Of a stretch of DNA of 64,000 bases, positions 4,601 through 56,500 are shown one piece after another. A model generated the notes under the pieces. That model did not search any database, had not been told where the DNA came from, and saw nothing but the letters and a program-made list of their open reading frames with translations. How positions within the stretch are numbered: the first letter of the stretch is position 1; each line of letters begins with the position of its first letter. The stretch is from positions 9,754-73,753 of the forward strand of contig JAGCVC010000001.1 of assembly GCA_017962565.1 (NCBI GenBank), read 5' to 3'. Origin of the DNA: Alphaproteobacteria bacterium. Lineage in GTDB: Bacteria > Pseudomonadota > Alphaproteobacteria > CAAHEQ01 > UBA3637. Made by a program: the position numbers and the translations under genes.

Positions 4601-7600
4601 TCCATTGCCTTCATTTCGATCTAAACCGGCAACATTATTAGTTTCGTAAGAATCAGCAACATGCGCAACACAATTATTTCCATAATCTTGCAACCAGAAT
4701 TTAAGATTACTACCTGTACTTGCAGCACTTCTCAAATTTGCATATCCGGTTGATGTACATGCCGTATCCGGATAACATGCTATGCTGTTTGTTGTTGCTG
4801 ATGGTGTCGGGCGACTTACTGTACTTTGTGATACACACCAACTTTGTGCACTCCACCAATTCATCGGTTTGCTACGCAACCACTTATGTCCATCAGCTGT
4901 TGTCACCTCGGAATTATCCGGTGCATAATCAGAGACAGGCAAACACTTACCAATTCCAGATTCTGCACAAGAGGTAGCATCTCCAAAATAACAGAACCCG
5001 CCTTCTGGACATCCGCCATTCTCCACGCCTTTTTTCGTCCAACTTCTACACAAAAGTTCTGCTTTACACAAAGCACGGATATTCTCCGGCCTTGGTGCAC
5101 CAATGCCCTTTAAGTCATCTTCAGAATAATAAGTCAAACTTACATTGCCATTTGCATCTTTGCCACCAACCACTACGGCATGAATGCAATTACATTCCGT
5201 TTGAGTACCTGCACAAGTGCCCCGACTACAACCATTAGATGTAGAATGGGATACATGACTGCCACCGTTTATCCAGAATGATCCACCGGTAATCTTTCCT
5301 GTCTTTACAAGGCTGACTAATTCATCATCAGTTGCAAGGTTATACCCATGTTCTGCATCATTACGTTCCATTTGTCCTATTGCCCAACAATAACTCTTGG
5401 CGGTTGCAGCACTTACTGAACCGAAAGTATTATAAACAAAACGATCAAATGCACTATCATTCAATAAAACACTTTGTTTACCCCAGAATGCTACCGGATT
5501 ACAAGCACCAATATTAGGTACTTCAGTATCGCCAGTAGTGGATTTTCTTATAGTATATGCTCCGGGTCCATCTCCAGATGAATCCGCACGACAAACAGCA
5601 GATCGCGAATAAGTACAGAAAGTACTTCCGGGGCCGATATTAGTAACATCACACACACCCCAATTAGAACATCCCCAAGGAACGCCTGTTTCCAAATCTG
5701 GTACGCATCTGTTACAACCGTCATTTTCTACAAGATGGTAACCCGTTTCACATGCTGCACATGCATGGTTTGAACCACTTATTGCGGTACAATGAGGCAT
5801 TAAACAATAACCACTTATTTTACAGGACTCTTCACAATTGCTTATACAATCCGTTGAATTACACAAGTGATCAAGGCATACACCATTCGCACAAGGCGGA
5901 TTTGGACAAGGTGGCGGTGAAGGACATGTACATATCCCATTGACATCAGGACATCTTTCCGGACATGGACATTTAGTATCCGGATCAGGGTACTCAGCAT
6001 CTTTGTCACGAAGAGAAGCCTCTAGTGGATCGGTTGGCATTACACACTTATATTTTGTACATGGACAATCTATATTTGCCTCTGGGTAGTACTTACTTGT
6101 ATCTTCTTCTGTACAAATATTACCATCGGAAAGTTCATGTGGCAAAGTATGTTGTACACATGGTGTCTTACATACCCATTCGCCGTCTTCATAAAAATCT
6201 TTCCAACCATCTCCACAAGGACATCTTAGCTTTTCATCAGTCGTTGCATTACCTGTAAAAGTCGTACGACATACATCATCGACAGGATCAACAGGAACTT
6301 CTTTACGATGCGCTTCATTTGTCGGCTTTATACATGAACATCCTTCACATTTACAATATACAACAACCTTCGAATATGATTGATAAATCCATTTTGGCAA
6401 TCGAATTCTACCTTCTGCCGTACAATCTGTTTCATCCTCAACACATATACGTTCACACGTTTTATTATCACTGCTCTTGCTCCAACCTGTATACTTTACT
6501 CCGTCTATTGTCAAACCAGAGACAGATAAATCTTTTCCAGTCATACACGGACATGATTGATTTGGCGTATCATATTCCTGTCCTTCATTGTATTCTGTAC
6601 AACATGGATTATAATCGGATGAATCAATCGTTGGCTTTTTACAAGGATAAGAATACTCAATGCATGGGCAATAATCATCATCCGCATTTGTTAAGGAATA
6701 ATTATTATATGCGACGCACCCTTCTATCTTATGGGCTTCGTCACGTTCTCTACAATAGCATCTATGTACGCTTTCAGGAGCAGGCCCCACTCGATCCGGA
6801 TACTCTGCCGGACAAAGACAGCTAACCCCTTTCGACCACGTCGTCGGACATGTTCCATTTGATAAAAGACCGCCCGACAAAAGCGTACCTGTAATCCGGT
6901 GTGGATCTTCATGCGGGTCATACCCATCAGGTGTTACACAATAACAACAATCAGCACAACACGGACAAGGTCCTGCGTTTGTTGAACAAGAATCATACGC
7001 AGAACACCCTTCTATTGCGTTTGCACTTGTTCTTGTCTGACAATAACATTTTTTTGTACTATCATTTCCACAAGTTCTTTCTTCATAATTACTTGTATCA
7101 CAATAGCATTTCGTAGTCTCATTATACGTAGATGCGCATACCTGATGATAATTTGCATCTAACGCCCTTATAAGACGACGTGCAGCATCTTCTGTATCAG
7201 TCGGCATCACACAATTACAGTTACATGGACAGAACGGCACAACACCGTTTGTCACTTGTGATGCAGCATAAACTGTCGACGTATTTTCTGATCCGTTACA
7301 CAAAGGATCCGTATTACCCGGCGTACAACAATAATCTTTACATGTACAAGAAACTACGCTACTTGGATGTTCACTGTGCACCCATTTTTCATTTTCATTA
7401 TATGAATGACAATTGTTACCAACTCCTGTGCCTGTACAACTGCTGTTAGGTATTCCTGGAACGCAACTACGTACGCACTGATTACCGCTAATGCTCCAAC
7501 CACCATAGTTTACTCCATCGATGACCAAACCGGTATCTCTTAAATCAAGGCTGTTATCATTTACATCTGTACATGGACAAGGTTGATTTGGTGTAGAATA

Positions 7601-9211
7601 CGTCCGTGTTTCATCATACCCGAGACAACATGGATTACCCGTAGGCACTTTACATTTGTATTCTATACACTTGCAATCTCCCTCATGTGTTGCGTATGAA
7701 CTCGTTCCATCCCCGTCTTCATATTTAACGCAATCGTCAATTTTTTTGAACTTACAATAACATCCTGAACGACCATTATCATTCGGATTTGTTCTTTCTT
7801 CACGATTTCCTCTACATGGGCATATAAATTCCGGAGCACAAACAGCACCACTCAAACTACCTGTCTCATTTGTTTCCGGATTAACACGATTGTTCGGATT
7901 AACACCTTCTACATTACATATTGTATAACAATGCCCATCACTTTTCTTTCTATAACCCTCTTTACATGTTGATTCACAAACAAGACATTCTTGATCTGTT
8001 GAAAATGCCTCGGTAGCATAATCAGCACAGGTGTCAGCATCATCCGGCACGTAACACATAAGTTTTGTACACGGACATCCACCACCTTTTTCTGTTGCAG
8101 GAGTTGCTTCATTCCATTCTTTACACTGGCAAGGCGGCCAATCTTGATTTCCGCTGTGACAGAACCAACCGGTACAAGCACAACACTCTGATGTTCCTTC
8201 AAATTCATCGTTATATTCTACACATTCTTCATCTCTTGGACATTTTTTGCTACCAGGATAAGGATTTATACAAATTCTGATTTTTATACAAAGCCCCGTA
8301 GGCTCGTCCAATTCAAATCCTTCCTCGCATTCTTTACAAGGACATTCATCTGACTGTTCAGCATAATTATAATCGACACAATGCGCAATCTTCACAGGAT
8401 CACAAGCAAATTCAACCGAATCTTCACCAAAACAAGCACACGTTTCCGGATTTATTCCACCTTCTTCCTCACAGTCATCCGGAACGCACTTTCCACCACA
8501 ACTGACAGTTCCGAGCGGACAACACCTTTCTGGTCTATCAACTCCATCACCTAATTCGTTTCTAAGATCATTTAAGCAAAGAGCTCTTCCTTCACTAAGT
8601 CCCTCACAACAACAACCATTACACAACTCAGCAGCAGTACATCCTTCTGCACAGGAAGGATTACCGCTGAAATAGAAACGAACAGTCACAGTTGTTTCTC
8701 TCTCTTCTATTGGCTCATCTTCTATTATTTTCGGTTGGCAAATGTCTTTTGGTTTTGTTTCATCTTTTTTAAAATCTCTTACTTCACCTTTTGTAATAAT
8801 CGCCATTTTATGTTTATCTTGTGCTTTTGGCAACAAAACCGAACAATCATCCGGCAATACTGTCGGCACATCAATATAGAATGATTCCCCTGAATCTTTG
8901 ACTGCTGCCAACGCGTATATACTGTTCCCTCTGAAATCCGTTTCAGCGATTACTGCGCCTTCTTCAATTTCCCCTTTAGGGATATCTTCCAAACGTTCAT
9001 ATATCGTAAGAGCCAAACGTTCCACATCATCGGCGATCTGATTAGCATGGTGGTGATTGATTGATATATGATACAAAGATATACCTGCTATACTCAATAT
9101 GCCCACAATAGCCAGAACGCCCAGCATTTCCAACATAGAACGTCCTTTCTGAATAGCAAATTTCACGGTTGTTTTCTTTTGTTTTTTGAAGAAATTCAGA
9201 GGATTTAACAT
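1631..9211 (-). CDS. Giant (2526 aa) cysteine-rich modular surface protein with N-terminal prepilin-type (class III) signal/pilin-like helix; dozens of EGF/furin-like Cys-rich repeats (CxxC...GY.LVN..C..C), NxT/S sites
   Basis: Uninterrupted 7.58-kb ORF; strong RBS AAGGGAG 9 nt upstream of ATG at 9211; N-terminus KG|RSMLEMLGVLAIVGILSIAGISLY (G, E at +5, ~20 hydrophobic residues) matches type IV pilin/pseudopilin leader; extreme Cys content with periodic spacing. Confidence 0.8.
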   Translation of the reverse strand: MLNPLNFFKKQKKTTVKFAIQKGRSMLEMLGVLAIVGILSIAGISLYHISINHHHANQIADDVERLALTIYERLEDIPKGEIEEGAVIAETDFRGNSIYALAAVKDSGESFYIDVPTVLPDDCSVLLPKAQDKHKMAIITKGEVRDFKKDETKPKDICQPKIIEDEPIEERETTVTVRFYFSGNPSCAEGCTAAELCNGCCCEGLSEGRALCLNDLRNELGDGVDRPERCCPLGTVSCGGKCVPDDCEEEGGINPETCACFGEDSVEFACDPVKIAHCVDYNYAEQSDECPCKECEEGFELDEPTGLCIKIRICINPYPGSKKCPRDEECVEYNDEFEGTSECCACTGWFCHSGNQDWPPCQCKEWNEATPATEKGGGCPCTKLMCYVPDDADTCADYATEAFSTDQECLVCESTCKEGYRKKSDGHCYTICNVEGVNPNNRVNPETNETGSLSGAVCAPEFICPCRGNREERTNPNDNGRSGCYCKFKKIDDCVKYEDGDGTSSYATHEGDCKCIEYKCKVPTGNPCCLGYDETRTYSTPNQPCPCTDVNDNSLDLRDTGLVIDGVNYGGWSISGNQCVRSCVPGIPNSSCTGTGVGNNCHSYNENEKWVHSEHPSSVVSCTCKDYCCTPGNTDPLCNGSENTSTVYAASQVTNGVVPFCPCNCNCVMPTDTEDAARRLIRALDANYHQVCASTYNETTKCYCDTSNYEERTCGNDSTKKCYCQTRTSANAIEGCSAYDSCSTNAGPCPCCADCCYCVTPDGYDPHEDPHRITGTLLSGGLLSNGTCPTTWSKGVSCLCPAEYPDRVGPAPESVHRCYCRERDEAHKIEGCVAYNNYSLTNADDDYCPCIEYSYPCKKPTIDSSDYNPCCTEYNEGQEYDTPNQSCPCMTGKDLSVSGLTIDGVKYTGWSKSSDNKTCERICVEDETDCTAEGRIRLPKWIYQSYSKVVVYCKCEGCSCIKPTNEAHRKEVPVDPVDDVCRTTFTGNATTDEKLRCPCGDGWKDFYEDGEWVCKTPCVQHTLPHELSDGNICTEEDTSKYYPEANIDCPCTKYKCVMPTDPLEASLRDKDAEYPDPDTKCPCPERCPDVNGICTCPSPPPCPNPPCANGVCLDHLCNSTDCISNCEESCKISGYCLMPHCTAISGSNHACAACETGYHLVENDGCNRCVPDLETGVPWGCSNWGVCDVTNIGPGSTFCTYSRSAVCRADSSGDGPGAYTIRKSTTGDTEVPNIGACNPVAFWGKQSVLLNDSAFDRFVYNTFGSVSAATAKSYCWAIGQMERNDAEHGYNLATDDELVSLVKTGKITGGSFWINGGSHVSHSTSNGCSRGTCAGTQTECNCIHAVVVGGKDANGNVSLTYYSEDDLKGIGAPRPENIRALCKAELLCRSWTKKGVENGGCPEGGFCYFGDATSCAESGIGKCLPVSDYAPDNSEVTTADGHKWLRSKPMNWWSAQSWCVSQSTVSRPTPSATTNSIACYPDTACTSTGYANLRSAASTGSNLKFWLQDYGNNCVAHVADSYETNNVAGLDRNEGNGHYALCDLGCPEGKTLNDEGVCKGEPIVTMKCYPHPAGSRRDPEYGEDDAVGDFTGCPDGYFCLFDNPFPAPTQDRQCTELKANIDIIIEKLHALGYEEYVSNPLNGVELNAHSCSQAYWTWGAGEGRCVPYADYPMDRAVLSGDSGRVYLVPGEEFDDTKRLNQWSAHSWCEYYGAQHNIDTSMVHFYFHNLKALTSQFREAYPLRMEYWTQNDEHTCETTTLVYMPYKMVYFNVNRGYSGLTGCFAIECGDCSDWGYSTQYFAYDYPTEEKYPLCLLGFWGQGESSVRMCGRTDTTGDCLYCDSDDGTYYGLTSDHQQCVECKSSDLVESCDTYSYDSTQSRCICSKCNETYKLVENQCVKCPTNITNDCAVYGDPGLTCDCISWDGCAKGYCRHVSANNEAEYCFDTHTDHCLDCVDSISLVDETKQCGKCDPGYYRTIDSDGNYSCEACDNAQGRELYFCDGRFLNPGIDCTCAACDEGYQLVNNRCTACNIKCSDYINPGFDCSCARCSKGYYPPLNANGVADIYNCEPCASDYYNTHHCDLFANSGLSCECLRCDKGYELVNGKCVSCPSYGCETYLRPGLSCVCAFPCASGYYQDANGVCQKCSENCSQCTNASVCTKCSWGYGLTAEHTCVECPEGCDPEGDGYYTEPGISCECSLCRRWGEDDTYGLITDPDLQNTGTCQLCNNDDLVDYCDFYEYNTTLNKCVCKSCSDEYHYAIDTTTNTCKFCSPYETTCAEYETDVDGVCECKKCDPGNTLLNGHCCDNNGWYYYSENGEWYEQSCCGPNEEWSTVKNKCICKDGFGLSAGVCTPCSNADEMERCAEAVNNNGTCSCTRCSTGYFVQNGKCVDCDETFINGKEACDHYLNPGVTCECSECDAYQGARLGINLSDHSCRLCPKEDVGYTVTRATYSNGHCTPTRCLNDSDYLYEGHCCSSSGIYVDADRNNSDCCPAGSNTKWLWGNGTGKCVPITCTTAQDEFGNCL

Positions 9212-28364: not shown

Positions 28365-31082
28365 TTAATATTCACAAGATCCATTGTTATAGGTACGAAC
28401 ATGCTGGCTTCCAGGATAGTCACATTTGTCGCATTCTTCCTTTGATGTTTCCTTGGCGTTCGCGTTAAAACATCTTGTACAATTACCATTGGCATTTCTG
28501 AACCACCCCAACGGACACGACCAATCGCAATAACCATCCTCACCTATTTCACGGGTACCACATGACAAACATTCTGCATCATTATAAGCCCCTCTTCTGT
28601 AAAGATCTTCACAACTTCTACACTGTTGATCTGAACTCCAATATTTACCGGCTCCACATTTTGGTACATTCGTTCCATCACATGTCGCACCGGATGGACA
28701 ATTTGCACAACTGCTACCATTCCAGTACTGATTACTATTGCAAGATGTTGCCGTTACACGCGTTCCGTCGCATGTTGCACCCTCCGGACAATTTACACAA
28801 GAACTGCCGTTCCAATACTGATTTGTTCCATGACAGCAATTCACGTACAAAGCGTTAGAAGCGCTATTAGTATTAGGAGCATAGGTATGTGAAACATAAC
28901 CGGCCTTACAACTTGCCCCCGTTCCGTCACATGTTGCGTTATTTGGGCAATTCCTGCAAGTATTACTAATCCAATATTGATTACTTTTACAACAAGCCAA
29001 ATTTCCGGTAGAAGTCATATGTGAAGTATAGTCGCCTCCACAATTTCCTTCCGAACCATTACATGTCATACCGTTTGGACAAGAAACACACTTATTACCG
29101 TTCCAATATTCCTTCGTGTTGCTGCAACAATACGAAATACCGGAATAGTTTGTATGTAAAATATAGCCACTTGGACAATTATCTCCTTCACATGTTGTAT
29201 TATTATTCGGACAAGCATTACATTTATTACCACTTACATATCTACCTTCGCCGCAATCTACTATAGTAAAGCCATCACATCTTGCATTGTCAGGACAATT
29301 AGCACAATTAGTCCCATTTTTATATTTACCTTCGCCACAATTTGTTATTTTTCCTGCCTCACATGTCGCACCGCTTGGACAAGCAGCACAACCGTTATCA
29401 TTCCAATATTGATTTGAAGTACAACAATATTTATCGGCTCCGTTTTTCTCAAACAAGAAGGAACCCTCATTACATCTTACATTTTTCCCATCACATGTTC
29501 CACCGTTTGGACAATTCTTACAAACACCTGCGTTATTCAAATACTTACCACTACCACAATCTGCTTTTGTTCCATCACATGTTGCACCGTTAGGACAAGT
29601 TTTACACGAATTAGTTTCATGATCATAGTATAAGAAACCATTACCGCCACAATTTACACCGGTTCCATTGCATACTGCACCGGAAGGACAAATATAACAT
29701 CCCCCTTCTTCTAACAAATACTTACCTTCCCCACAAGTTTCTATACCCGTTTCGTTACATGTTGCATAGGATGGGCAGAAAGAACAAAAGGATCCATTCC
29801 AATACTCATTTGCACTGTTACAACAATACAAATTAGGAACGTTGCCATGTGAAATATAGTTCGCCGCACAACCATTTACATTCACTCCATCGCATATTGC
29901 ACCGGTTGGGCAAGGTTTACAAGCACCTATTTTATTCAAATAATAACCAACGCCACAATTTGCATTCGTTCCGTCACATGTTGCACCGTTCGGACAAAAT
30001 TGACAGACACCCGTCCAATATTGACTTGTATTGCCACAGCAACCTACATTTTGTCCTTCTTTATGAAGAGTGTAACCTTCCGCACAACCCGTTATATTTT
30101 TACCATCGCACACCCCATGAGCGATGCACGATGAGCAATTAAACTTACGTTCATTCCAATATTCTCTTCCTATTTCACAACAATACGCGTTGTTTTGATA
30201 TACCTTAGCTAATAGATACCCTGACGGACAATCCGCACTTGTTCCATTGCACGTCATACCAGTCGGACAAAATTCACATGTTTCGCCATCCCAATATTCG
30301 CTTTGTTCTCTACAGCATCCGTACAGTTCTTCAATATTACCATTGAACACATAACCTTCGTGGCAACTGAATTTTTTTCCGTCACAAACCAAATTACTAC
30401 CCGGGCAATCTGCACAATTACCATTTCTATCTATATATTTACCTTCACCACAGTTTGCGTTTGTTCCATTACATGAAGTAAGACCATCCGGGCAACTTGC
30501 ACAATTGCCATCATTGTCTACATATTTACCTTCCCCACAATTTGCATTCGCACCATCGCATACTGCACCCGCCGGACATGTTGCGCAACTGGATCCATTC
30601 CAATATTCATCTTCTTGGCATCCATAATCTTTAGGCTTGACCCCACCTTTACTGCCGTCAAATGCTATACCTATGTTATTGAATTCTGCACATGATGCCT
30701 TCTGAACCAGTGCCATTTCGCCATTTTCATAGACATCGTAGTAAACTACCTTTCCCCCCTTCATCTTTAACATATGTTCGCAGATTTTTTCCGGAACCTC
30801 TATCGCTTGCACATATGTTATTAACTTACCATGACCTGTTGCACGTATAACTTTAAATACAAACCCGCTTTCCGCCGCTATAGAGTATTCTGTCCAATTT
30901 GGATATTCTGTCTCTGTTGATTCAACCGATCCATATATCAAAGATGCATCCTGAATCGCTCTATTGGCTCTATTCTTATTCATCACATAAGAAAAACCAA
31001 ATAATGCTGCTACACTCAATATACCTATAATTGCCAATACACTCAGTGTTTCCAGCATGCTACGTCCGCGTTCATTTCTCAT
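28365..31082 (-). CDS. Cysteine-rich modular protein (905 aa) with N-terminal prepilin-type signal (RG|RSMLETLSVLAIIGILSVAALFG) and about 18 tandem Cys-rich modules of roughly 35-40 aa (YCC..EYWNG..C..CP.GATCDG.NANCGEGKY)
   Basis: Uninterrupted ORF; RBS GGAGGAAAG 9 nt upstream of ATG 31082; N-terminal 30 residues about 75% identical to those of the 2526-aa protein; regular Cys spacing throughout. Confidence 0.8.
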   Translation of the reverse strand: MRNERGRSMLETLSVLAIIGILSVAALFGFSYVMNKNRANRAIQDASLIYGSVESTETEYPNWTEYSIAAESGFVFKVIRATGHGKLITYVQAIEVPEKICEHMLKMKGGKVVYYDVYENGEMALVQKASCAEFNNIGIAFDGSKGGVKPKDYGCQEDEYWNGSSCATCPAGAVCDGANANCGEGKYVDNDGNCASCPDGLTSCNGTNANCGEGKYIDRNGNCADCPGSNLVCDGKKFSCHEGYVFNGNIEELYGCCREQSEYWDGETCEFCPTGMTCNGTSADCPSGYLLAKVYQNNAYCCEIGREYWNERKFNCSSCIAHGVCDGKNITGCAEGYTLHKEGQNVGCCGNTSQYWTGVCQFCPNGATCDGTNANCGVGYYLNKIGACKPCPTGAICDGVNVNGCAANYISHGNVPNLYCCNSANEYWNGSFCSFCPSYATCNETGIETCGEGKYLLEEGGCYICPSGAVCNGTGVNCGGNGFLYYDHETNSCKTCPNGATCDGTKADCGSGKYLNNAGVCKNCPNGGTCDGKNVRCNEGSFLFEKNGADKYCCTSNQYWNDNGCAACPSGATCEAGKITNCGEGKYKNGTNCANCPDNARCDGFTIVDCGEGRYVSGNKCNACPNNNTTCEGDNCPSGYILHTNYSGISYCCSNTKEYWNGNKCVSCPNGMTCNGSEGNCGGDYTSHMTSTGNLACCKSNQYWISNTCRNCPNNATCDGTGASCKAGYVSHTYAPNTNSASNALYVNCCHGTNQYWNGSSCVNCPEGATCDGTRVTATSCNSNQYWNGSSCANCPSGATCDGTNVPKCGAGKYWSSDQQCRSCEDLYRRGAYNDAECLSCGTREIGEDGYCDWSCPLGWFRNANGNCTRCFNANAKETSKEECDKCDYPGSQHVRTYNNGSCEY

Positions 31083-31290
31083 ATGACTTTCCTCCTCTGA
31101 TAGGAACTATTTTCTCAATTTTAACTTTTACCTTCTAATTATCTGATTTGTCAAGTACTTTTTATATTTTTTTTACATCATACTAAATTCGTTTTAGCAT
31201 TCTGCTGTGAAAAGACTCTGAAATTCAAAATAACACCATGCACACCAGACCATAAAAACGGAATCTTATGGCCTTTTCCGCACAAAAAAG

Positions 31291-34200
31291 TTAAATTTGT
31301 TTGATTTGACGTATACCCGGAATTGAACACAAAGCACCGATTGTATCGGATGATAGAGCATACCCGTTTGGCAATTTGATTTCCACTTGGTAATCATTGG
31401 CCTGAACAACAATAATTGCCGTTCCGCGTCCTTTTTTGTCTGCATCTAAAACTTGTTTTACTCTTGGTAAACAAGAAGCACTTTCCACATAAATCATAGC
31501 CGTTTCGGACATACTAGCCACAACATCGGCCAAATATTCAACATTTTGGACTGTTGCACGTACAGCACCTTCTTCGTTTAAATCAGCGGCCAACGACACA
31601 ATCAATGGCTTGTTTGATTCCAATTTTTCACGACTTTGATTCAACATTTCGGAAAAGCACAGAGCTTCAAAAGTTCCAACAGTATCCGAACCAACAATAA
31701 AAGCAAATTTCTTACCGCTTTTTTGACTGATTCTTTCGCGTTTTTCATTGATAATACAAGCAATTCGCAAACGTGCTGAACCGGCGCTTTTCACTAAAGG
31801 TTCAATTTCATTTGTAAAGTTAACACGCAAACGTTCAAAGTTATCTGCATAAGCATCCAACGGGTGCGCAGATAAATAAAAACCGACAGCTTCACGTTCC
31901 AAATCCAATTTTTGCATTGCCGGATAATCGGGAATTTCCTGCATGCGCAATTCTTCAAAAGATGCTTCCCCGCCAAAAAGTGAAGCTTGCGAACTTTCTC
32001 TTGATTTTTGTAAACTGGCTGCATGCTGTCCCATTTTTTCGACATTTGCCAATAATTTTGCCCTGTTTTTATCCAAACAATCCAATGCACCGGATTTAAT
32101 CAAACTTTCCAAACAACGTTTGTTCATAACGGCCGGACTTGAACGCGCAATAAAATCTTGAATAGACTTATACGGTCCGTTCTTTTCACGTTCTGCGACC
32201 AATTCTTCCACAGCACCGTCACCCACATTTTTAAGCGCAGATGCAGCATAGCGAATAGCACCGTCTTCCACCGTAAAATTAACACAAGATTTATTAACAT
32301 CCGGGGGCAAAATTTTAATCCCCATTTGCGAAATTTCACGTTTAAAGAAACCCAATTTATCCGTATCGATTTTATCCAAAGTCATTGTAGCGGCCATAAA
32401 TTCAACCGGGTAATGCGCTTTTAAATAAGCTGTTTGGTAAGAAACAAAGGCATACGCCGCTGCGTGTGACTTATTAAAGCCGTAGCTGGCGAATTTTTCC
32501 ATTAATTCGAAAATTTCAATAGCTTTTTCTTCTGCAACACCCTTCTTTTTAGCGCCTTCAATAAAGACTGCTTTTTGTTGTTGCATCACATCAAATTTCT
32601 TTTTACCCATAGCACGGCGCAACAAATCTGCTCCGCCCAAACTGAAACCGGCTAATACTTGAGCAATTTGCATAACCTGCTCTTGATAAATCATAATACC
32701 GTAAGTTTCTTTTAAAATACCTTCCAACAAAGGATGTAAATAATCGGGTTGTTCTTGTCCGTGCTTACGTGCAATATAGGATGGAATATTTCCCATCGGA
32801 CCCGGACGATACAAAGCCACAATAGCAACAATATCTTCGATCTTATCGGGCTTCATATCTTTTAAAATTTTGCGCATACCGGCACTTTCTAACTGGAACA
32901 CCCCGGAAGTATCCGCATCACCCAACAATTTAAATGTATCAGGATCATCCAAAGGAATAGCACTTAAATCAAATTCAATTCCTCGAAGCTTCAATAATTC
33001 CATCGTCTTTGCCAACGTGGTTAAAGTCTTTAATCCCAAAAAGTCAAACTTGATCAACCCCGTTGACTCAACATATTTCATGTTGTATTGAGTTACCGGC
33101 ATATCTGATGACGGATCTTTATAAATCGGCAAAATTTCATTTAAAGGAAAACGTCCGATAACAACACCGGCTGCGTGTGTAGAAGTATTACGGTATAAGC
33201 CTTCCAATTGCAAAGCAATTTCGAGCAAATGTTTAATTTGCGGCTCATTTTTTGCTTCTACTTCAAAAGCCGGTTCAATATCCAATGCTTCTTGCAAAGA
33301 ATACGGCTTGCCTTTTTCATTCATACCGTTTGGTACTAATTTTGAAAGCCTATCCACAACCGGATAAGGAATTTGCAACACGCGCCCGACATCTCGAATA
33401 ACCGCTTTAGGTTGCAACTGACCAAAAGTAATGATTTGCGCCACATGATCAAAGCCATAATGATCTTGCACATATTTGATACTTTGTTCACGCTTTTCCT
33501 GGCAAAAATCCACGTCAAAATCCGGCATGTTCACACGTTCCGGATTTAAAAAACGTTCAAACAACAAATTAAAACGCAAAGGATCAATATCGGTAATTGT
33601 TAAAGCCCATGCCACCACAGAACCGGCACCCGAACCACGACCCGGACCGACCGGAATATTATGTGCTTTTGACCATTGAATAAAATCCGCAACAATTAAA
33701 AAATAACCGGGAAAGCCCATCTGCTTAATTACGCTCAATTCATACTGTAAGCGCTGATTATATTTTTCAAACTCATCAGAGCGATTTTTCATACGCGCGG
33801 CCAAACCGGTTTCTGCTTTTTCACGCAAGACTTCATCTTCCGTTTTACCATGACAATCATAGCGCGGAAATTCGGGCTTATGAAACTCCACCATAAAACC
33901 GCAACGTTTAGCTATTTGAACCGTATTTTCCAAAGCTTCCGGTAAATCGGAAAATAATTCAGCCATCTCTTCCGGGCTTTTTAAATAATGCCCCGGCGAT
34001 AATCGTACTCTGTCTGTTACATCAACATATGTTTTTTGACCTATACACATCAAAGCATCATGCGCTTCATACATTTCCGGTTTATCATAAAAAGCTTCGT
34101 TTGTTGCAACCAAAGGAATATCCAAATCAAATGCCAATTTTAAAAATTCATCTTCTGTTTTAGCTTCGTCCGGTTCACCGGTTCTGGAAATTTCCATATA

Positions 34201-34728
34201 AAAGCGATTGCCAAAAGCTTTTTTTAAAAATACCGTTAATTCTTTGGCTTTTTCTGGTTTTCCCTGTAAAATATAACGTCCGATCGGACCTGTTGCACCA
34301 CCGGAAAGCAGTATCAAGCCTTCATTAAATTCTTTTAATTCTTCTAATAACAAATGCGGCGTTGTTTGTTTTGTCGGTCCCATATAATAGCGGTCAAAAA
34401 TTTTGAGTAAATTCTTATAACCAGCTTCATTTTGTACCAACAAAATAATTTTATCTAAAATGGGATTGATTTGGTCTTCCGGTAAAATAAGTTTACCTTT
34501 TTCCGTTTCTTGTTTCAATAACAGCTGTGTTCCCAAAATCGGTTGAATACCGTTATCGGCAGCCTCGTGCGAAAAATCCATACCGCAACAAAGATTTCCG
34601 CTGTCCGTCACAGCAACGGCAGGCATATTTAATTCTTTGACACGTTTTACCAACTTGCCCATTTTCATTGCTCCTTCAAGCAATGAATAAGCAGAATGTG
34701 TTCTTAAATGGATAAAAGTCGGTGTCAT
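31291..34728 (-). CDS. dnaE: DNA polymerase III alpha subunit
   Basis: 1145 aa; PHP domain N-terminus (IHLRTHSAYSLLEGA), polymerase core and OB-fold; length and motifs canonical. Confidence 0.95.
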   Translation of the reverse strand: MTPTFIHLRTHSAYSLLEGAMKMGKLVKRVKELNMPAVAVTDSGNLCCGMDFSHEAADNGIQPILGTQLLLKQETEKGKLILPEDQINPILDKIILLVQNEAGYKNLLKIFDRYYMGPTKQTTPHLLLEELKEFNEGLILLSGGATGPIGRYILQGKPEKAKELTVFLKKAFGNRFYMEISRTGEPDEAKTEDEFLKLAFDLDIPLVATNEAFYDKPEMYEAHDALMCIGQKTYVDVTDRVRLSPGHYLKSPEEMAELFSDLPEALENTVQIAKRCGFMVEFHKPEFPRYDCHGKTEDEVLREKAETGLAARMKNRSDEFEKYNQRLQYELSVIKQMGFPGYFLIVADFIQWSKAHNIPVGPGRGSGAGSVVAWALTITDIDPLRFNLLFERFLNPERVNMPDFDVDFCQEKREQSIKYVQDHYGFDHVAQIITFGQLQPKAVIRDVGRVLQIPYPVVDRLSKLVPNGMNEKGKPYSLQEALDIEPAFEVEAKNEPQIKHLLEIALQLEGLYRNTSTHAAGVVIGRFPLNEILPIYKDPSSDMPVTQYNMKYVESTGLIKFDFLGLKTLTTLAKTMELLKLRGIEFDLSAIPLDDPDTFKLLGDADTSGVFQLESAGMRKILKDMKPDKIEDIVAIVALYRPGPMGNIPSYIARKHGQEQPDYLHPLLEGILKETYGIMIYQEQVMQIAQVLAGFSLGGADLLRRAMGKKKFDVMQQQKAVFIEGAKKKGVAEEKAIEIFELMEKFASYGFNKSHAAAYAFVSYQTAYLKAHYPVEFMAATMTLDKIDTDKLGFFKREISQMGIKILPPDVNKSCVNFTVEDGAIRYAASALKNVGDGAVEELVAEREKNGPYKSIQDFIARSSPAVMNKRCLESLIKSGALDCLDKNRAKLLANVEKMGQHAASLQKSRESSQASLFGGEASFEELRMQEIPDYPAMQKLDLEREAVGFYLSAHPLDAYADNFERLRVNFTNEIEPLVKSAGSARLRIACIINEKRERISQKSGKKFAFIVGSDTVGTFEALCFSEMLNQSREKLESNKPLIVSLAADLNEEGAVRATVQNVEYLADVVASMSETAMIYVESASCLPRVKQVLDADKKGRGTAIIVVQANDYQVEIKLPNGYALSSDTIGALCSIPGIRQIKQI

Positions 34729-34796
34729 ATACTCTAATTCCTTTGTTACGAGGAGTCATAGCATATTTTTTTCAAAAAATCAACGGATTTTAAATA

Positions 34797-35168
34797 TCAT
34801 TTTGTTTCTGTTACATGCGTTTCCGGTTGATACGTAGATTTCAGATAATTGGCAATTTCTTTTTTATAAACTTGTATCAAAATTGCCAAAACAAAAACAC
34901 TAAAAAGTAGAAAGAATATAAAGCCCGAAAAAAGTCCTGCTTTTGGATGGGGCAAAAGCATAAAAATTAAAACAGCTAAAACAATTATAAAGAATGCTCC
35001 TATTGTCAATATAGACAATATAAATTTGTTCACATCCTCCCCTTTTGCAGCCGCCTTTTGAAGTTCTAAGTATATTGCGTTTGCGATCTCAATTATGTTG
35101 TTATGAAAACAAACGAACACCAATGCCAAAAGTAATAAAATAATACAAAAAAACACTCTTTTTTTCAT
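34797..35168 (-). CDS. Hypothetical small membrane protein (123 aa, 3 TM)
   Basis: ORF; ATGA start/stop overlap with upstream 195-aa gene. Confidence 0.5.
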   Translation of the reverse strand: MKKRVFFCIILLLLALVFVCFHNNIIEIANAIYLELQKAAAKGEDVNKFILSILTIGAFFIIVLAVLIFMLLPHPKAGLFSGFIFFLLFSVFVLAILIQVYKKEIANYLKSTYQPETHVTETK

Positions 35169-36438: not shown

Positions 36439-37031
36439 TTTCCAGAAAAAAGAATTATAAGAACCATTATTATAATAAATAAAATTTGTATTTTAAAATT
36501 TAACATATCGGTCGTGTCTGCTCTTTTGCCTTTCATTTTGCCCAAATAGAACCTTAAACGAAGTAACATCATATTCAATACAACCAACACACAAATATAA
36601 GCAGACCATTTAATTGACAAAATAGGAATGCTGAAACCCACAGGAAGCACTGCACTTTTCCATAGTTTTTCTTTCTTTTTCTTGCCAAAAAAACACCATG
36701 ATAATTGTACACTTATTACAGATAAAAAAGCAAAGCCCCAATTTCTTAAGGTATTATCGATATATCCTATTGCAAAAGGTATGGAAGAAAAGAAAATTCC
36801 CACCAACCATATAAAAGCAATAACCTTTTTCAAAAAAGAAACCAAAAAATTATTTCCTTCTATTAACTCTTGTTTGGTGAGTTCTTCGGAATCATTATCA
36901 ACATCATCTGCATTCATAGATTGCGCCACAAAACTTTCCCCACCCATTTGAAAGAAAGGATTGAGTTGTTTTCTTTTGGATGATTTTTTCAATTTTATCT
37001 TACCCATACCATTCCCTTTTTTAATCATCAC
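36435..37031 (-). CDS. Hypothetical membrane protein (198 aa) inserted between lol permease and ATPase genes
   Basis: ORF with 4-nt overlap to lolD start; several TM segments; exact start uncertain (internal Met at residues 2 and 9). Confidence 0.5.
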   Translation of the reverse strand: MMIKKGNGMGKIKLKKSSKRKQLNPFFQMGGESFVAQSMNADDVDNDSEELTKQELIEGNNFLVSFLKKVIAFIWLVGIFFSSIPFAIGYIDNTLRNWGFAFLSVISVQLSWCFFGKKKKEKLWKSAVLPVGFSIPILSIKWSAYICVLVVLNMMLLRLRFYLGKMKGKRADTTDMLNFKIQILFIIIMVLIILFSGK

Positions 37032-38250
37032 AAGTTCTGTCTATACCGCCATTGGCAAAATTAATAAAAGCAGAACCCGTCAATTCTCTTTTTTCTCCTT
37101 TATCCGTATAGCAAAAACTTTTTATCATTTTTCCGTCTTTGAATTCACTTTCCATCGACAAAGAACCGTTTTCATTATATAATCGTTCATAACCGTTCTC
37201 TTTATCGTCTTTAAATTGAGTTTCTTGTATAATTTGACCATTATCTAAATATATTCGGAAAAATCCTTCTCTTTTCCCGTTAACAAAATCTGTTTCTTGT
37301 CTGACACCAAAACGAACGGCTGTTTTTCCATCTGCATGCGGATAATATATTTGTTTTCCTTCTTGTTTTCCGTCTTTGTAATAGAAAGTCGAAACAATCT
37401 CTCCGTTTTTGTTAAATGTCTTTGCCGGACCATTTGCAACACCATTTACACGTTCAAACGTTTCGAACAAACTTCCGTCCGGCGAGTAAACTTCAACTGT
37501 TCCATGCTCTATTCCATTCACATACGGTATCTTCCACAATTTATCTTGTTTTTCCACTTCGGCAACACTATTACGGAAAACACAATAACCGTTTTTCATC
37601 TCTCTGTTACTACAACGTGCGCAATCTTCTTCGGAATAACGAAAATCTTTATCGGAACAACTTTCGCATCTGCCAGAATAGGTATTTTTCAAAGGATATT
37701 TTTCATTCAAACACTTTTTAGGAACGCAATGATCATTGAAAAATTCTGCGTTTGAACACTTTAAACATTCGCTTTCTGAAACACTCCACGCAACGTACGT
37801 TTCCGGACAAGACACACAGTAACCATCTTTGTCCCTTATTTCACCTTCTTTACACTTGTAGCGACATTTCCCGTCCAACCAAACACGATTGTCAAGTGAC
37901 TCACAGTCTTTTTGATTTGTTGTATTTACGGAAGGCCCCCTTTTAGTCTCCCAATGTTTGACTTGCTGCGTGCGTACAAAGAAAATAGAAGAAAAAAGCA
38001 CACCCGTTAAAAGAATGTTAGATAAAAGAAATATCCCTAAAAACTTCCATTTACGTGCAAGGACAGAAAAAAGAATAAAGAAAAACAAATACATTCCCAA
38101 AAAAACAAAAAAAGTAATGGGAGTTTCCACTATAAGATAGTATCGTGTTTCTGTCGGAAGAAGAAATACAATACATAAATATATTCCCAACAATGAAACA
38201 CATACCAATAAAGATAAAAATAAAGATTTTAATACTGTTAATTTTTTCAT
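37021..38250 (-). CDS. Membrane-anchored protein (409 aa): 3 N-terminal TM helices, Cys-rich linker, C-terminal MORN/YwqK-like repeats (G..EG....Y..NG....E..FKDGK)
   Basis: Complete ORF overlapping downstream gene by 11 nt; repeated YxxxGxxxG/FKDGK motifs characteristic of MORN-repeat proteins. Confidence 0.6.
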   Translation of the reverse strand: MKKLTVLKSLFLSLLVCVSLLGIYLCIVFLLPTETRYYLIVETPITFFVFLGMYLFFFILFSVLARKWKFLGIFLLSNILLTGVLFSSIFFVRTQQVKHWETKRGPSVNTTNQKDCESLDNRVWLDGKCRYKCKEGEIRDKDGYCVSCPETYVAWSVSESECLKCSNAEFFNDHCVPKKCLNEKYPLKNTYSGRCESCSDKDFRYSEEDCARCSNREMKNGYCVFRNSVAEVEKQDKLWKIPYVNGIEHGTVEVYSPDGSLFETFERVNGVANGPAKTFNKNGEIVSTFYYKDGKQEGKQIYYPHADGKTAVRFGVRQETDFVNGKREGFFRIYLDNGQIIQETQFKDDKENGYERLYNENGSLSMESEFKDGKMIKSFCYTDKGEKRELTGSAFINFANGGIDRTCDD

Positions 38251-52545: not shown

Positions 52546-53535
52546 TTAAGTAATACTTGTCACGGCACGGATGTTACCATTACGGTTGATTTGAACAACA
52601 CGCAACTTATCGTGCATTTCCTTTAATGTTTTTTCTCGGTCGATTGTCGGTGTTGTACGCATAATACGTGCAACGAAAGCTCTGTATGCTTCTTCGGTAT
52701 TTTCGGCATGGATAGTTGCAAAACAGTTTTCATGACCAGATCCCATCAGTTCCCAAACCGCGCTGGCATTTGATGTAGAAATTTCACCGCAAATAATCGC
52801 ATCCGGCGTAAAACGCACAATCAAGTCAATCACGCGTGTATAAGAAAACTTATTGGTTTGATCTGTACGAGGCAACACAACATGCACTCTGTTTTTATGC
52901 GGAATAATCAATTCGCGTGTATCTTCAACCGTAATAATGCGCTTATGTTCATCAACCAACTTTATCATATTGTTTAAAAAAGTTGTTTTACCGGTTGCCG
53001 TTCCACCACTAATTAAAATGTGTTCACCTTTTCGAATAGACAATAACAAACGATCGTAAGGATCATCAGGATCTTCTACCTGAGCCATTTTATTTAAAGG
53101 CCGTAACCGTTGCCCTTGTTCCAAATTAAAGTCGCTAAATTCAATCCCGATATCTTCTTTATAAACACGGATGGCTAATGCAACACCACCTGTCAAATCT
53201 TCATTATCATACATTACATTCCGACCACTAATGCCCGTAAAACGATGCCCGCCCGGTAATGTAGCATAAACAACAGGGTTACCTTCTGTCGGTTCAAAAG
53301 ATTGATCATAGCTGTTTGCAATAATATACAAAATATTATTCAAATATTCTCTGGTTAACTTTGGATCTTCCTGTTCTTGCCAAGGATGCTCTCTACGTCC
53401 ACGCAAACGCAACCAAATGGCACCCGGATGGTCAACAGCAACTTCCTCCACACCGTCTTGTTTATACCAGTAAGATAAAGGACGCAGAGCAGATTCTAAA
53501 ACCTTATACGTTTCGGAAATTGATAACTCTGGCAT
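52546..53535 (-). CDS. virB11: Type IV secretion system ATPase VirB11
   Basis: 329 aa; Walker A GGTATGKTT, VirB11/TrbB/GspE-family Asp and His boxes; RBS AAGAGAGGGG; start 15 nt after virB10 stop. Confidence 0.9.
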   Translation of the reverse strand: MPELSISETYKVLESALRPLSYWYKQDGVEEVAVDHPGAIWLRLRGRREHPWQEQEDPKLTREYLNNILYIIANSYDQSFEPTEGNPVVYATLPGGHRFTGISGRNVMYDNEDLTGGVALAIRVYKEDIGIEFSDFNLEQGQRLRPLNKMAQVEDPDDPYDRLLLSIRKGEHILISGGTATGKTTFLNNMIKLVDEHKRIITVEDTRELIIPHKNRVHVVLPRTDQTNKFSYTRVIDLIVRFTPDAIICGEISTSNASAVWELMGSGHENCFATIHAENTEEAYRAFVARIMRTTPTIDREKTLKEMHDKLRVVQINRNGNIRAVTSIT

Positions 53536-53549
53536 TAACCCCTCTCTTT

Positions 53550-56500
53550 TTAATACAGCGTATCTGAAGCATTCACACGACTGGAACCACGTTTTGCCAA
53601 CGGCTTAGCCACACTCTGATTAACCTTGTAGTCCGATAATCCCTGACGAGAACGATAACGATCTTCCAAGCTCTGTTCTTTCTTGGAAGCCGTTTCTTCA
53701 TCTTCATCAGAAGAAGCCGGTGTATAGATATTTTCATCTGTATATTCCGGTTCGTAATAATCCTCATCATCTTCAGATTCTGCTTCATCGGATCCCTGTG
53801 ATCCATTCGTTGCAGCAGGACGTGTCGAACGGTCAGCAGTTGGTCTTTGCTGCATCCGACCAGAATTACCCTTTGGTGTCTGAGCCGCTGTCGGATCCGG
53901 TCCGTTTTCGGCAACATAATCATCTTCATCATCCTGTTCGCTACGTAACCACAAATCATCCATAGCAAACACAGTCATACGCGTACCGGACGGAACAAAA
54001 ACAACCGGCGGAGTTGAAGAAGATTCTTCTATCATCTGCTGGAAGATTTGTTCCATGTCATCCAAGAATCTTTCACGTGCATCTTGTGCAGCTTGAGCTC
54101 TGGCAGATTGAGTAGAAGTACCATAGTTTTCATTGGTAGTTACAGCATCATCTGAGGAAATAATATAACTGATTGCAGAAGTCAATGTTGATTGCAACAA
54201 AGGTTTACCGTAACGAGCTAACCATTGTTCATCCAAGTAAGCAGCTACACCGCCTCGACCTTGAGCATCTCCGGATGTTCCGCTTAAAGTAAACTGCGAT
54301 CCGTCAGGACGGATTAAACGTTCCCAAGAAATTTCCATCATAGACACGTGGTTTGTTCCTGCACCACCCGAACAACGACCGATTAACTTACTACCGGCCG
54401 GGATAACGATATTACGTCCATCTTCAGCAAACACATTACGTTCCACAATTGCAGAAGCAGGCACACTCGGATAACGAGAGTCAATTGAACGTACTAACAC
54501 AGCAGGAATTGCTTTGTCTTTCAAAATCATTCTTGTCATGTCAACCGGCCAAGATGAAACGATCTTTGAACCAAAATCTTTATCCTGTTTTTGTTTTGCA
54601 CGCGCTAAGACACGTCCGTCTGGTGTAATCTTTGCCATATTACGACCAACACCTTGTTTCATTTCTGCCCGTCGACGAGCCAACAAATCACGCATTGCAG
54701 AAGCTTGTGCCGGATCAAACTGTAATTTTTCTTGTGGATAAAGCCCGTTTGCACCCGTAGCACCATTCAATCCTAATTCATCAGCTAACAAATTGCCGGA
54801 TAATGAATAAGGAACACCATTGCGTAAAGTACCAACAACTGCACCGGTTGCATCAACAATTGTATTATCAGGCATTACAAAGAAACTCTTATCCCCGATT
54901 GCAATCCGACGACCCGTTAAACCGGCACCACCTATTCCCGGCGATCCCGCTAACAAATTCTTTACACCGGAAACAAATCCCGTTGAAGAAGTGGGTTTTA
55001 ATTTACCAACAACTTTACCATTGATTTCAACAGTACCATCCGGATGAATCTTTCCGATGATATTACCATTTGCATCACGGATGTTTCCGAATTCGTCAAC
55101 ATAACCGATGACATTACCGTATTTATCATAAACTATACAATTTTTGATGGTATAAAGCAATTCACCATTGTCATCATAGACTGTTCCATCATACTTTTTA
55201 CATGGCGGGTTTGTATCCAATTTACCCAAGATTTTACCATTGACTTCAACAGTACCATCCGGATGAATCTTTCCAATGATATTGCCATCTTTATCGCGAA
55301 TGTTTCCGTATTCATCCACATATCCGATAACATTACCGTATTTATCATACAAGACACAATCTTTAATCCAACCGTTCATTTCACCATTTTCATCATAAAT
55401 GATACCATCGTATTTCTGACACGGTTTTTCAAAGTCTTCAAACATCGTAATTGTGCCATCAGGATTCAAACGTCCTATTGGTTTACCGTTCATATCATAA
55501 ATGATGCCGTCCGGTCCGATCCAGCCGGTTTGATTACCATCCAAATCAAATAACTTACCGTCTTTGATATATCCCGTAATATTACCGTTTGCATCATAAA
55601 TGTAGTTTGGCAAATTCGTTGCATTACCAATCTTATTTCCGGCTAAATCATAGATATTGCCGTCTTCATCCAAATAGCCAATTAAGTTACCGTTTGGATC
55701 ATACAATTTATCATCGGCACCAACCGTAAATAAGTGCTTACCGTTATTGTCAAATACTTTACCGCCTTTATCCATAGAACCGATAATGTTGCCATTATCA
55801 TCAAAGAGCAAGTGGTTCTTTTTGATATCGACAACAGAACCGATCTTGTTGCCGTCCAAATCAACAACCGTTCCATCACCCAATACTTTACCGATAACTT
55901 CACCGTTAGCATTAACAACTTGTCCGTTTCTTAAAACACGACCGATAACGTTTCCGTTTTCATCAACAACAATACCGCGTTTTAATACATGACCGATAAC
56001 ATTGCCATCGTGGTCAATAACCGTTCCGTCTTCCAAAGCACAACCGATTGACACACCTTCCATATTTACAACATCAGCATCCGGCAACGTACGACCCAAC
56101 ACATCACCATTGTCTGCAATAACAGTTCCTTTTAATACAATACCGCCCAAAGATTGACCTTTTTCGTCTTTAGCCAATCCGTCTAATCCGACATAACCGA
56201 CCACTTTGGCATTACCATCAATAATACGACCATCGTAACGAACTTGTCCTTGAATTTGACATTGTTTTGTAACCAATTCTTTCGGAACAACAGCACCTAA
56301 AGTTTTTAATTGATGCTTTCCTTTAACAGCTCCGTTAGAAGCCAAAGGACCAACTTTTGCACCTTTGATATCTGTTACATAACCGTCACCGGTTGAATCA
56401 CCGATAACATTTGTTTGATGATCAATTGCTGTTCTAAAACCAACCAAAGCACCGGCCAAATTACCGTCTGTTCCCAACAACGTTGCATCATCCAAAACGG

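Follow-up and report, generated by a model that had tools for sequence, protein, structure and literature searches.

In a 64,000-nt stretch of an uncultured alphaproteobacterial genome (contig JAGCVC010000001.1 of GenBank assembly GCA_017962565.1; hereafter the window, meaning the whole stretch analysed), the gene lying between dnaE and rpsB/tsf encodes a protein of 905 amino acids (aa) that is probably a modular type IV pilin, a minor subunit of type IVb fold displaying a disulfide-rich adhesin. GenBank holds the identical protein (MBP5533907.1, locus-tag prefix J6Y03) under the record name 'type II secretion system protein'. Cysteine accounts for 11.3% of its residues (102 Cys), alongside 13% Gly and 11% Asn, and the Cys total is even, with 2 in a pilin module and 100 in the body that follows it. 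An original prediction, made from the letters of the window, had recognized at this position a second prepilin-leader Cys-repeat gene of 905 aa beside rpsB, the first being a gene for 2526 aa; the open reading frame (ORF) and the rpsB gene, whose start lies 163 bp further downstream in the same orientation, bore this out.

Evidence for an N-terminal pilin module

The protein begins with MRNERG followed by RSMLETLSVLAIIGILS, and cleavage by a prepilin peptidase is predicted after Gly6. The mature chain would then start R-S-M-L-E-TLSVLAIIGILSVAALFG, with Glu at +5 and about 20 hydrophobic residues (alpha1N) behind it, as is typical of pilins. Our alignments show that the N-terminus has all the determinants by which a class III (prepilin) signal is recognized in sequence, namely a basic leader, Gly at -1, Glu at +5 and a run of about 20 hydrophobic residues. 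The Gly that ends the short charged leader was found in all 141 top matches with a detectable motif, of which 140 had Arg and one had Lys at the next position. In canonical pilins the mature +1 residue is hydrophobic (Phe, Met, Leu, Trp and the like), and here Arg stands in its place. Across 45 diverse members of the family, G6, R7, E11, L13, L16, N40 and C101 were invariant and C131 was conserved in at least 90%, and the pilin module also held a conserved motif of the family's own, (F/Y)xYAMNKHRAN. With Gly-1 and Glu+5 kept in all 45, the objection that the N-terminus might resemble a generic signal peptide, lacking the G-x-x-x-x-E pilin motif, fails.

Profile comparisons pointed to the same class of proteins. 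A search of the PDB with the N-terminal domain gave 18 matches, all of them type IV pilins or pseudopilins (geopilin, TcpA, PilA, PilE, PpdD and others); the matches were marginal (E 1e-3 to 0.5) and consistent in register, setting the family Arg at +1 and the Glu at +5. Against the TIGR02532 model, the isolated domain scored 16.4 bits and the full protein 13.3, with a cutoff of 16.3. Within the 45 diverse members, Pfam and NCBIfam matches at E <= 0.1 included N_methyl (34 of 45), TIGR02532 (20 of 45) and GspH (n = 20), with PpdD-type pilins, GspG, ComG pilins and PilA also recurring.

AlphaFold (AF2) modelled the pilin module with a mean predicted local distance difference test score (pLDDT) of 89.7 as a 46-residue helix followed by a beta-sheet, giving the lollipop shape of pilins, in which an N-terminal helix of about 50 residues lies on an antiparallel sheet, often with a C-terminal disulfide. 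The predicted module most resembles major and minor pilins of type IVb, led by CofA, the CFA/III type IVb pilin (listed value 7.9 over 132 aligned residues), and followed by C. difficile PilA1 (6.8), TcpA (6.4), S. Typhi PilS (5.7), PilM (5.7), CofB (5.5) and TcpB (5.1). From the alignments and the model together, we conclude that residues 1-150 form a complete pilin module of type IVb-like fold, which is more than a leader.

A domain shared with the 2526-aa protein

The other large Cys-rich protein of the window, 2526 aa in length (gene 1631..9211), has the leader stretch QKG followed by RSMLEMLGVLAIVGILSIAG. In the alignment of the two leaders, MRNERG followed by RSMLETLSVLAIIGILSVAALFG (905 aa) faces QKG followed by RSMLEMLGVLAIVGILSIAGISL (2526 aa). 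The original estimate of about 75% identity is fair, with 16 of 24 positions identical from the Gly onwards and 15 of 19 up to GILS, and alignment of the N-termini, which the prediction had called for, revealed a likeness running well past the leader: BLASTP with the first ~155-190 residues aligned 155 aa at 28% identity (E 1e-11). A six-frame scan of the 64 kb for G-x4-E followed by 16 uncharged residues returned just two sites, one in each of these proteins. At the DNA level the likeness covers about 70 nt, encoding GRSMLE..GILS, and no shared DNA was found upstream of the two genes. The bodies of the two proteins had no significant similarity (best E 0.099). On these comparisons, paralogy of the two proteins is confined to the N-terminal domain and the Cys-rich bodies are not detectably homologous. 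Between its Cys-rich regions, the middle of the 2526-aa protein has a W(W/S)SA(Q/H)SWC motif that occurs three times, together with non-repetitive stretches and with no Pfam match; these features may indicate lectin-like modules.

Size and distribution of the family

In an exhaustive search of 1.84 billion cluster representatives, a profile built from six N-termini matched at least 6225 clusters (50% identity) at E <= 1e-3, of which 4344 also passed E <= 1e-10, with proteins from 103 to 2526 aa in length, and a 45-sequence profile gave at least 7478 clusters at 90% identity. Profile searches were needed, as a word-indexed search with the single N-terminal domain found just one relative. NCBI and JGI name members as type II secretion system (T2SS) proteins or pseudopilins, and we found no paper that describes the family. 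A third large paralogue (P0002, 978 aa) lies on another contig of the same metagenome-assembled genome (MAG), from the same sample and with the same J6Y03 prefix; like the 905-aa protein it has the pilin module, repeats of the same type and the final 96 aa. Together with the cluster counts, this strongly supports the view that the giant gene belongs to a family and is not a one-off fusion.

When one genome per species was scanned with a restriction to the motif, 107 matches were confirmed, from which 79 loci were kept. All but one of these loci (the exception being a bin labelled Gastranaerophilales) came from MAGs of uncultured Alphaproteobacteria, and isolate names of the family-bearing MAGs point to the human gut and the ruminant gut or rumen. 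In counts of motif-bearing ORFs over 35 assemblies, which are lower bounds, CASECI01 has at least 15 members and CAKPYQ01 at least 12. Many family genes lie at contig ends in the MAGs (loci L002-L080); conserved 5' ends probably break short-read assemblies, so that copy numbers would be underestimated. Leaders are typically 6-12 aa long. Short members (130-260 aa, 0-5% Cys) are often found two to six in a row, and long members (400-2500 aa) contain 8-15% Cys. At L085 9114..11685, four small genes (123, 149, 144 and 136 aa) in a row, with membership of the family confirmed for the 144-aa one, precede a Thioredoxin_4 (DsbA-like) gene.

The Cys-rich body and its tail

Behind the pilin module, every repeat unit starts with C-x2-C-P (C-x2-C-I in one case). 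Nine short units of 28-31 aa contain 4 Cys each and eight long units of 44-53 aa contain 6 Cys each, the latter with an added ..CC-x3-4-(E/Q)YWNG, and the eighteenth unit merges into the tail. The original description of about 18 modules of 35-40 aa in strict Cys register was right as to the count, the mean start-to-start distance (36.8 aa) and the register, which held over all 18 parsed units; its single period gives way to a bimodal one. At the DNA level the units are 60-78% identical, and Tandem Repeats Finder detected no array in the repeat DNA, which argues that the strict Cys register has been kept by selection rather than by recent duplication. The tail, much better conserved than the rest of the body, is about 65% identical to that of P0002, compared with 32% overall.

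Kinship of the body with Giardia variant-specific surface proteins (VSPs), Paramecium surface antigens or furin-like domains, which the original prediction had proposed for searching, gained no support: there was no Pfam match to such models with the whole protein at E <= 1 or with a 206-aa repeat segment and the 97-aa tail at E <= 10, in a test where HMMER filters may mask very weak matches. Pfam and NCBIfam scans of the body, repeat segment and tail gave sub-threshold noise only (DUF7631, E 0.008; TNFR_ELAPOR1_6th, E 0.13; L37e), with no Pfam family found for the tail, and no PDB sequence matched the body by phmmer or by hmmsearch with a repeat-unit profile (to E 10). A precomputed match to PF27023 ('6BHPP') is marked 'faint' for the 905-aa protein and left unmarked for P0002; we found no paper mentioning this model. 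AF2 prediction of the whole protein without an alignment reached a pLDDT of 42.8, which is too low to base a fold search of the body on, and a beta-hairpin stack or solenoid, as first suggested, is hinted at by this low-confidence model.

The repeats occur in other contexts too. A 1510-aa protein from a JGI metagenome (P0003) has the same repeat module, with CxxCP..C(D/N)G..C and CC..QYW, behind an ordinary Sec signal peptide and lacks a pilin domain, so the body is a mobile module. P0006 and P0007 (the former encoded at L037 9971..13024) join the same pilin module to CC..TYWNG..C.CP repeats and a vWA-like (von Willebrand factor A) module with LVDRSGST, a DxSxS MIDAS-like motif.

Prepilin peptidase and pilus machinery in related genomes

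In CAKPYQ01, a close relative whose VirB11 is 94% identical to that of the window, locus L028 encodes a 232-aa Peptidase_A24 (58 bits against a cutoff of 26.5) with a GGGDVKM motif. No CxxC pairs were seen in its first loop, so the methylase domain is probably missing, and some known prepilin peptidases likewise lack this domain (PMC10191384). The peptidase gene (L028 5065..5763) stands two genes downstream of virB11 and before rodZ and prfA, an arrangement that is not conserved in the window. In about 1.4 Mb sampled from family genomes there were 138 prepilin motif sites of the G-R type and 6 that were plainly unrelated; the G-R motifs are thus the only credible prepilin-like motifs, and the G-R proteins the only visible substrates of an L028-type peptidase.

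Another family-bearing MAG has at locus L014, in order, genes for a TcpQ-domain protein, a secretin, PAP_PilO, a 308-aa protein, a 566-aa T2SSE ATPase, a T2SSF platform protein and a family member. Its PilO-like protein matches proteins annotated 'type 4b pilus protein PilO2' on plasmids, and the same gene order is found on Bosea plasmid pBSY19_1, where a PilV tip adhesin comes at the end. Ten further type IVb pilus (T4bP) operons were found in metagenomes, with ATPases 67-85% identical. The hallmark set of type IVb machinery (TcpQ, PilN-type secretin, PilO2, T2SSE and T2SSF in one operon) is therefore present in the lineage, at L014 and in the ten operons. The leader of 6 aa and the scattered genes depart from the long leader (15-30 aa) and the clustering of pilin genes with machinery that are associated with type IVb systems, features described as not discriminatory (PMC10191384). 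Family genes are generally scattered among housekeeping genes, no pilus machinery was found near short family members on long contigs, and the sole T2SSE-family protein in the window is VirB11. At L093 109..2847, VirB4-like (811 aa) and VirB3-like (96 aa) genes, assigned by eye, lie directly upstream of a T4bP operon.

Two other identities were considered and rejected: a T2SS pseudopilin, the NCBI name, as primary reading, given that the machinery is of T4bP type (PilO2, TcpQ) and no GspC/L/M-type genes were seen, and a type IV secretion system (T4SS) effector, given the N-terminal class III signal.

Proposed role and alternative explanations

As a minor type IVb pilin, the protein would be inserted into the inner membrane by alpha1N, a methylase-less A24 peptidase would remove MRNERG after Gly6 and expose Arg+1, and periplasmic Dsb enzymes would oxidise the ~50 Cys pairs of the body. 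The pilin module would then enter a type IVb pilus as a low-abundance subunit, probably at the tip like CofB, TcpB and PilV, with the slender disulfide-stapled repeat rod and the conserved 96-aa tail extending outward from the pilus to act in adhesion or ligand binding. Paralogues with a common pilin module and differing bodies would provide a single pilus with a set of alternative adhesins. Modular pilins are widespread (>1200 proteins in 264 architectures) and are likely tip-exposed (PMC8179133), and CofB, a minor pilin of a T4bP, is found as a trimer at the tip (PMC10191384). The pairing partner of Glu5 in known filaments is the N-terminal amine of the neighbouring subunit (PMC10191384); speculatively, the guanidinium group of Arg+1 might add to or replace this pairing, especially if the N-terminus is unmethylated.

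Several observations weigh against this reading. The capping tip subunit of known filaments is without Glu+5 (PMC10191384), unlike the 905-aa protein, which keeps it. Passage of a 750-aa body through a secretin may be difficult, and that of the 2300-aa body of the 2526-aa protein more so. Arg at +1 has no precedent among the solved pilins matched here, Pfam N_methyl (PF07963) scores fall below the cutoff of 21.2 (14.2 bits for the full protein, 17.2 for the isolated domain), Foldseek found no significant match for the pilin module in the PDB, and hhalign against the Bosea PilV showed no significant similarity beyond the signal (probability 0.07). Neither T2SS or type IV pilus machinery nor an A24 peptidase was detected in the window and the 10 kb flanking it on each side, and the evidence for both comes from other genomes and metagenomes of the lineage, not from the MAG of the 905-aa protein itself. 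The family member at L014 is cut off by the contig end, and in the ten metagenome operons no pilin or family gene follows the platform gene, so the adjacency at L014 may be coincidental.

Some of these points would suit a class III signal that serves solely for export and anchoring, the protein being cleaved and then either tethered in the inner membrane by alpha1N, released or displayed at the surface, without becoming a subunit of an extended pilus. Archaeal substrate-binding proteins with class III signals and T2SS pseudopilins that stay in the periplasm offer precedents, and the near-constant separation of family genes from pilus machinery, amid housekeeping genes, the very large bodies (up to 2526 aa) and the T2SS or pseudopilin names given by NCBI and JGI all fit. 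We nevertheless consider this explanation unlikely, since conservation extends beyond the signal to the entire globular module with its Cys pair, a T4bP machine with a secretin is present in these lineages, short members of 130-250 aa that could build a filament shaft are abundant, and the invariant Glu+5 has a known role in docking subunits within the filament (PMC10191384). An ordinary bitopic inner-membrane or periplasmic protein with an uncleaved signal anchor, its likeness to pilins a functionless relic, seems improbable: full-length N_methyl and TIGR02532 scores under their cutoffs, the non-canonical Arg+1 and the lack of a peptidase on this contig (window plus 10 kb beyond each end) speak for it, yet a mere anchor leaves unexplained why Gly-1, Arg+1 and Glu+5 are invariant over thousands of clusters otherwise 25-40% identical, a buried Glu in a transmembrane helix is costly unless used, and a close relative encodes an A24 peptidase (L028). 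We give hardly any credence to the ORF having arisen through faulty annotation or assembly, or being a pseudogene in decay made of low-complexity sequence, as its biased Cys, Gly and Asn content and the many family genes at MAG contig ends might suggest, because 2715 nt of unbroken frame follow a strong Shine-Dalgarno sequence, the Cys register stays strict at only 60-78% DNA identity, the even Cys count divides into 2 and 100 with 4 or 6 per unit, the last 96 aa recur at ~65% identity in P0002 and the gene sits inside a contig of 280,827 bp rather than at its end.

The minor-pilin reading might be extended, as an unlikely further step, to a new class of pilins in uncultured gut and rumen Alphaproteobacteria, marked by an invariant mature Arg and processed by a methylase-less peptidase. 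Dozens of scattered genes per genome, with interchangeable disulfide-rich adhesin bodies (to 2500 aa), would serve one chromosomal conjugative-type T4bP beside VirB T4SS genes, as a multigene counterpart of the PilV shufflon that selects the target cell of the T4SS, be it host or bacterial.

Genomic setting

The features discussed are collected in Table 1. A family member likewise occupies the dnaE-adjacent slot in CASECI01, where dnaE is 69% identical, and JAZSNA01 has a 366-aa member near dnaE. Members next to dnaE in other genera (L021 5749..10218; L017 2987..10065) differ greatly in body length (366 aa at L017 compared with 905 aa). Among the sampled loci of CAKPYQ01 there was no near-orthologue of the 905-aa protein, and the best identity over all fetched loci was 29%, which fits fast-evolving bodies.

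Table 1. Coordinates of the modular pilin gene, its parts and adjacent features in the window
Feature	Position	Strand	Basis or remark
Gene of the 905-aa modular pilin	28365..31082	(-)	complete ORF, ATG start; from the ORF list
Shine-Dalgarno sequence GAGGAGG, 8 nt 5' of the ATG	31091..31097	(-)	direct sequence reading
Leader peptide MRNERG, 6 residues, ending in invariant Gly(-1)	31065..31082	(-)	Gly invariant in two alignments; register against solved pilins
Pilin module, aa 7-150: R(+1)SMLE(+5), hydrophobic alpha1N within a 46-residue helix (aa 9-54), then beta-sheet, Cys101/Cys131	30633..31064	(-)	
18 Cys-rich units, aa 166-809: C-x2-C-P-x-G-x-x-C-(D/N)-G-x3-4-C-x-x-G-(K/Y)-Y with or without ..CC-x3-4-(E/Q)-Y-W-N-G	28656..30587	(-)	unit parsing, MAFFT alignment
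C-terminal Cys-rich tail, ~96 aa (aa 810-905), four CxxC pairs	28368..28655	(-)	much better conserved than rest of body
Leader and pilin module of the paralogous 2526-aa protein (gene 1631..9211)	8642..9211	(-)	BLASTP against the 905-aa N-domain; top match of the N-domain profile search, 197.6 bits
tsf	26449..27336	(-)	
rpsB	27422..28201	(-)	
dnaE, upstream of the 905-aa gene	31291..34728	(-)	

Elsewhere in the window, a cluster on the (-) strand (52546..63144) encodes VirB8, VirB9 (CagX), VirB10 and VirB11, the VirB10 being a 2331-aa protein with a TrbI domain after ~1900 aa of beta-flower repeats (PF21785, PF21784). A 1567-aa protein (13722..18425, (-)) contains about eight near-identical helical repeats of ~37 aa (AYTTLSDIVRAQPDLAEQVFETLKIGLQSDKNDGNSL) and has only sub-threshold or spurious Pfam matches, and a 910-aa protein (18873..21605, (+)) is of the pentapeptide-repeat/BspA-type leucine-rich repeat kind. 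Proteins with mTERF, ankyrin-repeat, MORN and Sel1 domains are encoded in these genomes (L085 18278..19354; L115 1269..2801; window 37021..38250), and such eukaryote-like or host-interaction domains hint at a cell-associated lifestyle.

Implications

Few bacterial surface machines have been studied as thoroughly as type IV pili. Pilin surveys rest on the G-F/M-x-x-x-E signature, cleaved after the Gly, and on InterPro domains, and this large family lies at or under those thresholds. Should its members prove to be pilus-borne, the size range of modular pilins would widen from ~860 aa to 2526 aa, Arg would be tolerated, or even required, at the pilin N-terminus, and there would be a large adhesin repertoire of uncultured gut Alphaproteobacteria to explain. 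The VirB secretion systems and eukaryote-like repeat proteins of these organisms point to intimate contact with other cells. For annotation, a testable description can now take the place of 'type II secretion system protein' or 'hypothetical protein'.

Comparison with known systems

Giardia VSP CxxC repeats, ciliate surface antigens and furin-like or TNFR-like modules look similar to the repeat body in composition, with short CxxC units, 4-6 Cys per ~30-45 aa and high Gly, Asn and Thr. At the level of sequence, no kinship of the body with VSP or furin-like repeats could be detected, and the rod presumably consists of disulfide-stapled hairpins by analogy with these eukaryotic-type Cys-rich repeats. 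The minor pilins CofB (enterotoxigenic E. coli CFA/III) and TcpB (V. cholerae TCP) have no sequence homology to the C-terminal domain described here and are single-copy genes within a pilus operon, in contrast to the scattered, multi-copy and Cys-rich genes of this family.

PilV of the conjugative thin pilus (IncI R64/TP114; PilV2 of PAPI-1) comes with machinery of the same class, encoded in the order TcpQ-secretin-PilO2-ATPase-T2SSF, and resembles the family in joining a constant N-terminal pilin part to alternative C-terminal adhesin parts. PilV variants of conjugative thin pili set target specificity, according to two reports (PMC5430464, PMC9045228). The variation of PilV arises by shufflon DNA inversion within one gene, whereas the family here comprises many separate genes; no inverted repeats were found at 27000-35000 besides a 16-nt palindrome inside rpsB, and thus no shufflon-like inversion system. 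Judged by the profile comparison given above, the 905-aa protein is not a PilV homologue.

The nearest architectural counterparts are modular pilins as defined by Raynaud et al. (2021), since a pilin module (aa 1-150) is followed by a 750-aa Cys-repeat body that is not pilus-specific. Like PilB and PilC of S. sanguinis (PMC8179133), the protein combines a class III signal and a small pilin module with a bulky C-terminal module, not specific to pili, that brings a new binding function, and the vWA module of PilB has a match in the vWA-like module of the relatives P0006 and P0007. In comparison with the modular pilins of that survey (PMC8179133), those described here have a type IVb fold, Arg+1, motifs of their own and an unclassified Cys-rich array; their bodies reach 750 aa, and ~2300 aa in the neighbouring gene, against a survey extreme of 860 aa in total, and expansion has brought the family to 12-15 genes or more in a genome. 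Overall, the sequence is already present in databases under a generic name. The protein has the main hallmarks of a modular or minor type IV pilin, in its signal, Glu5 and fold, and its departures from known pilins are the Arg at +1, a short leader combined with a IVb-type fold, genes unlinked from the machinery and an unclassified Cys-rich body.

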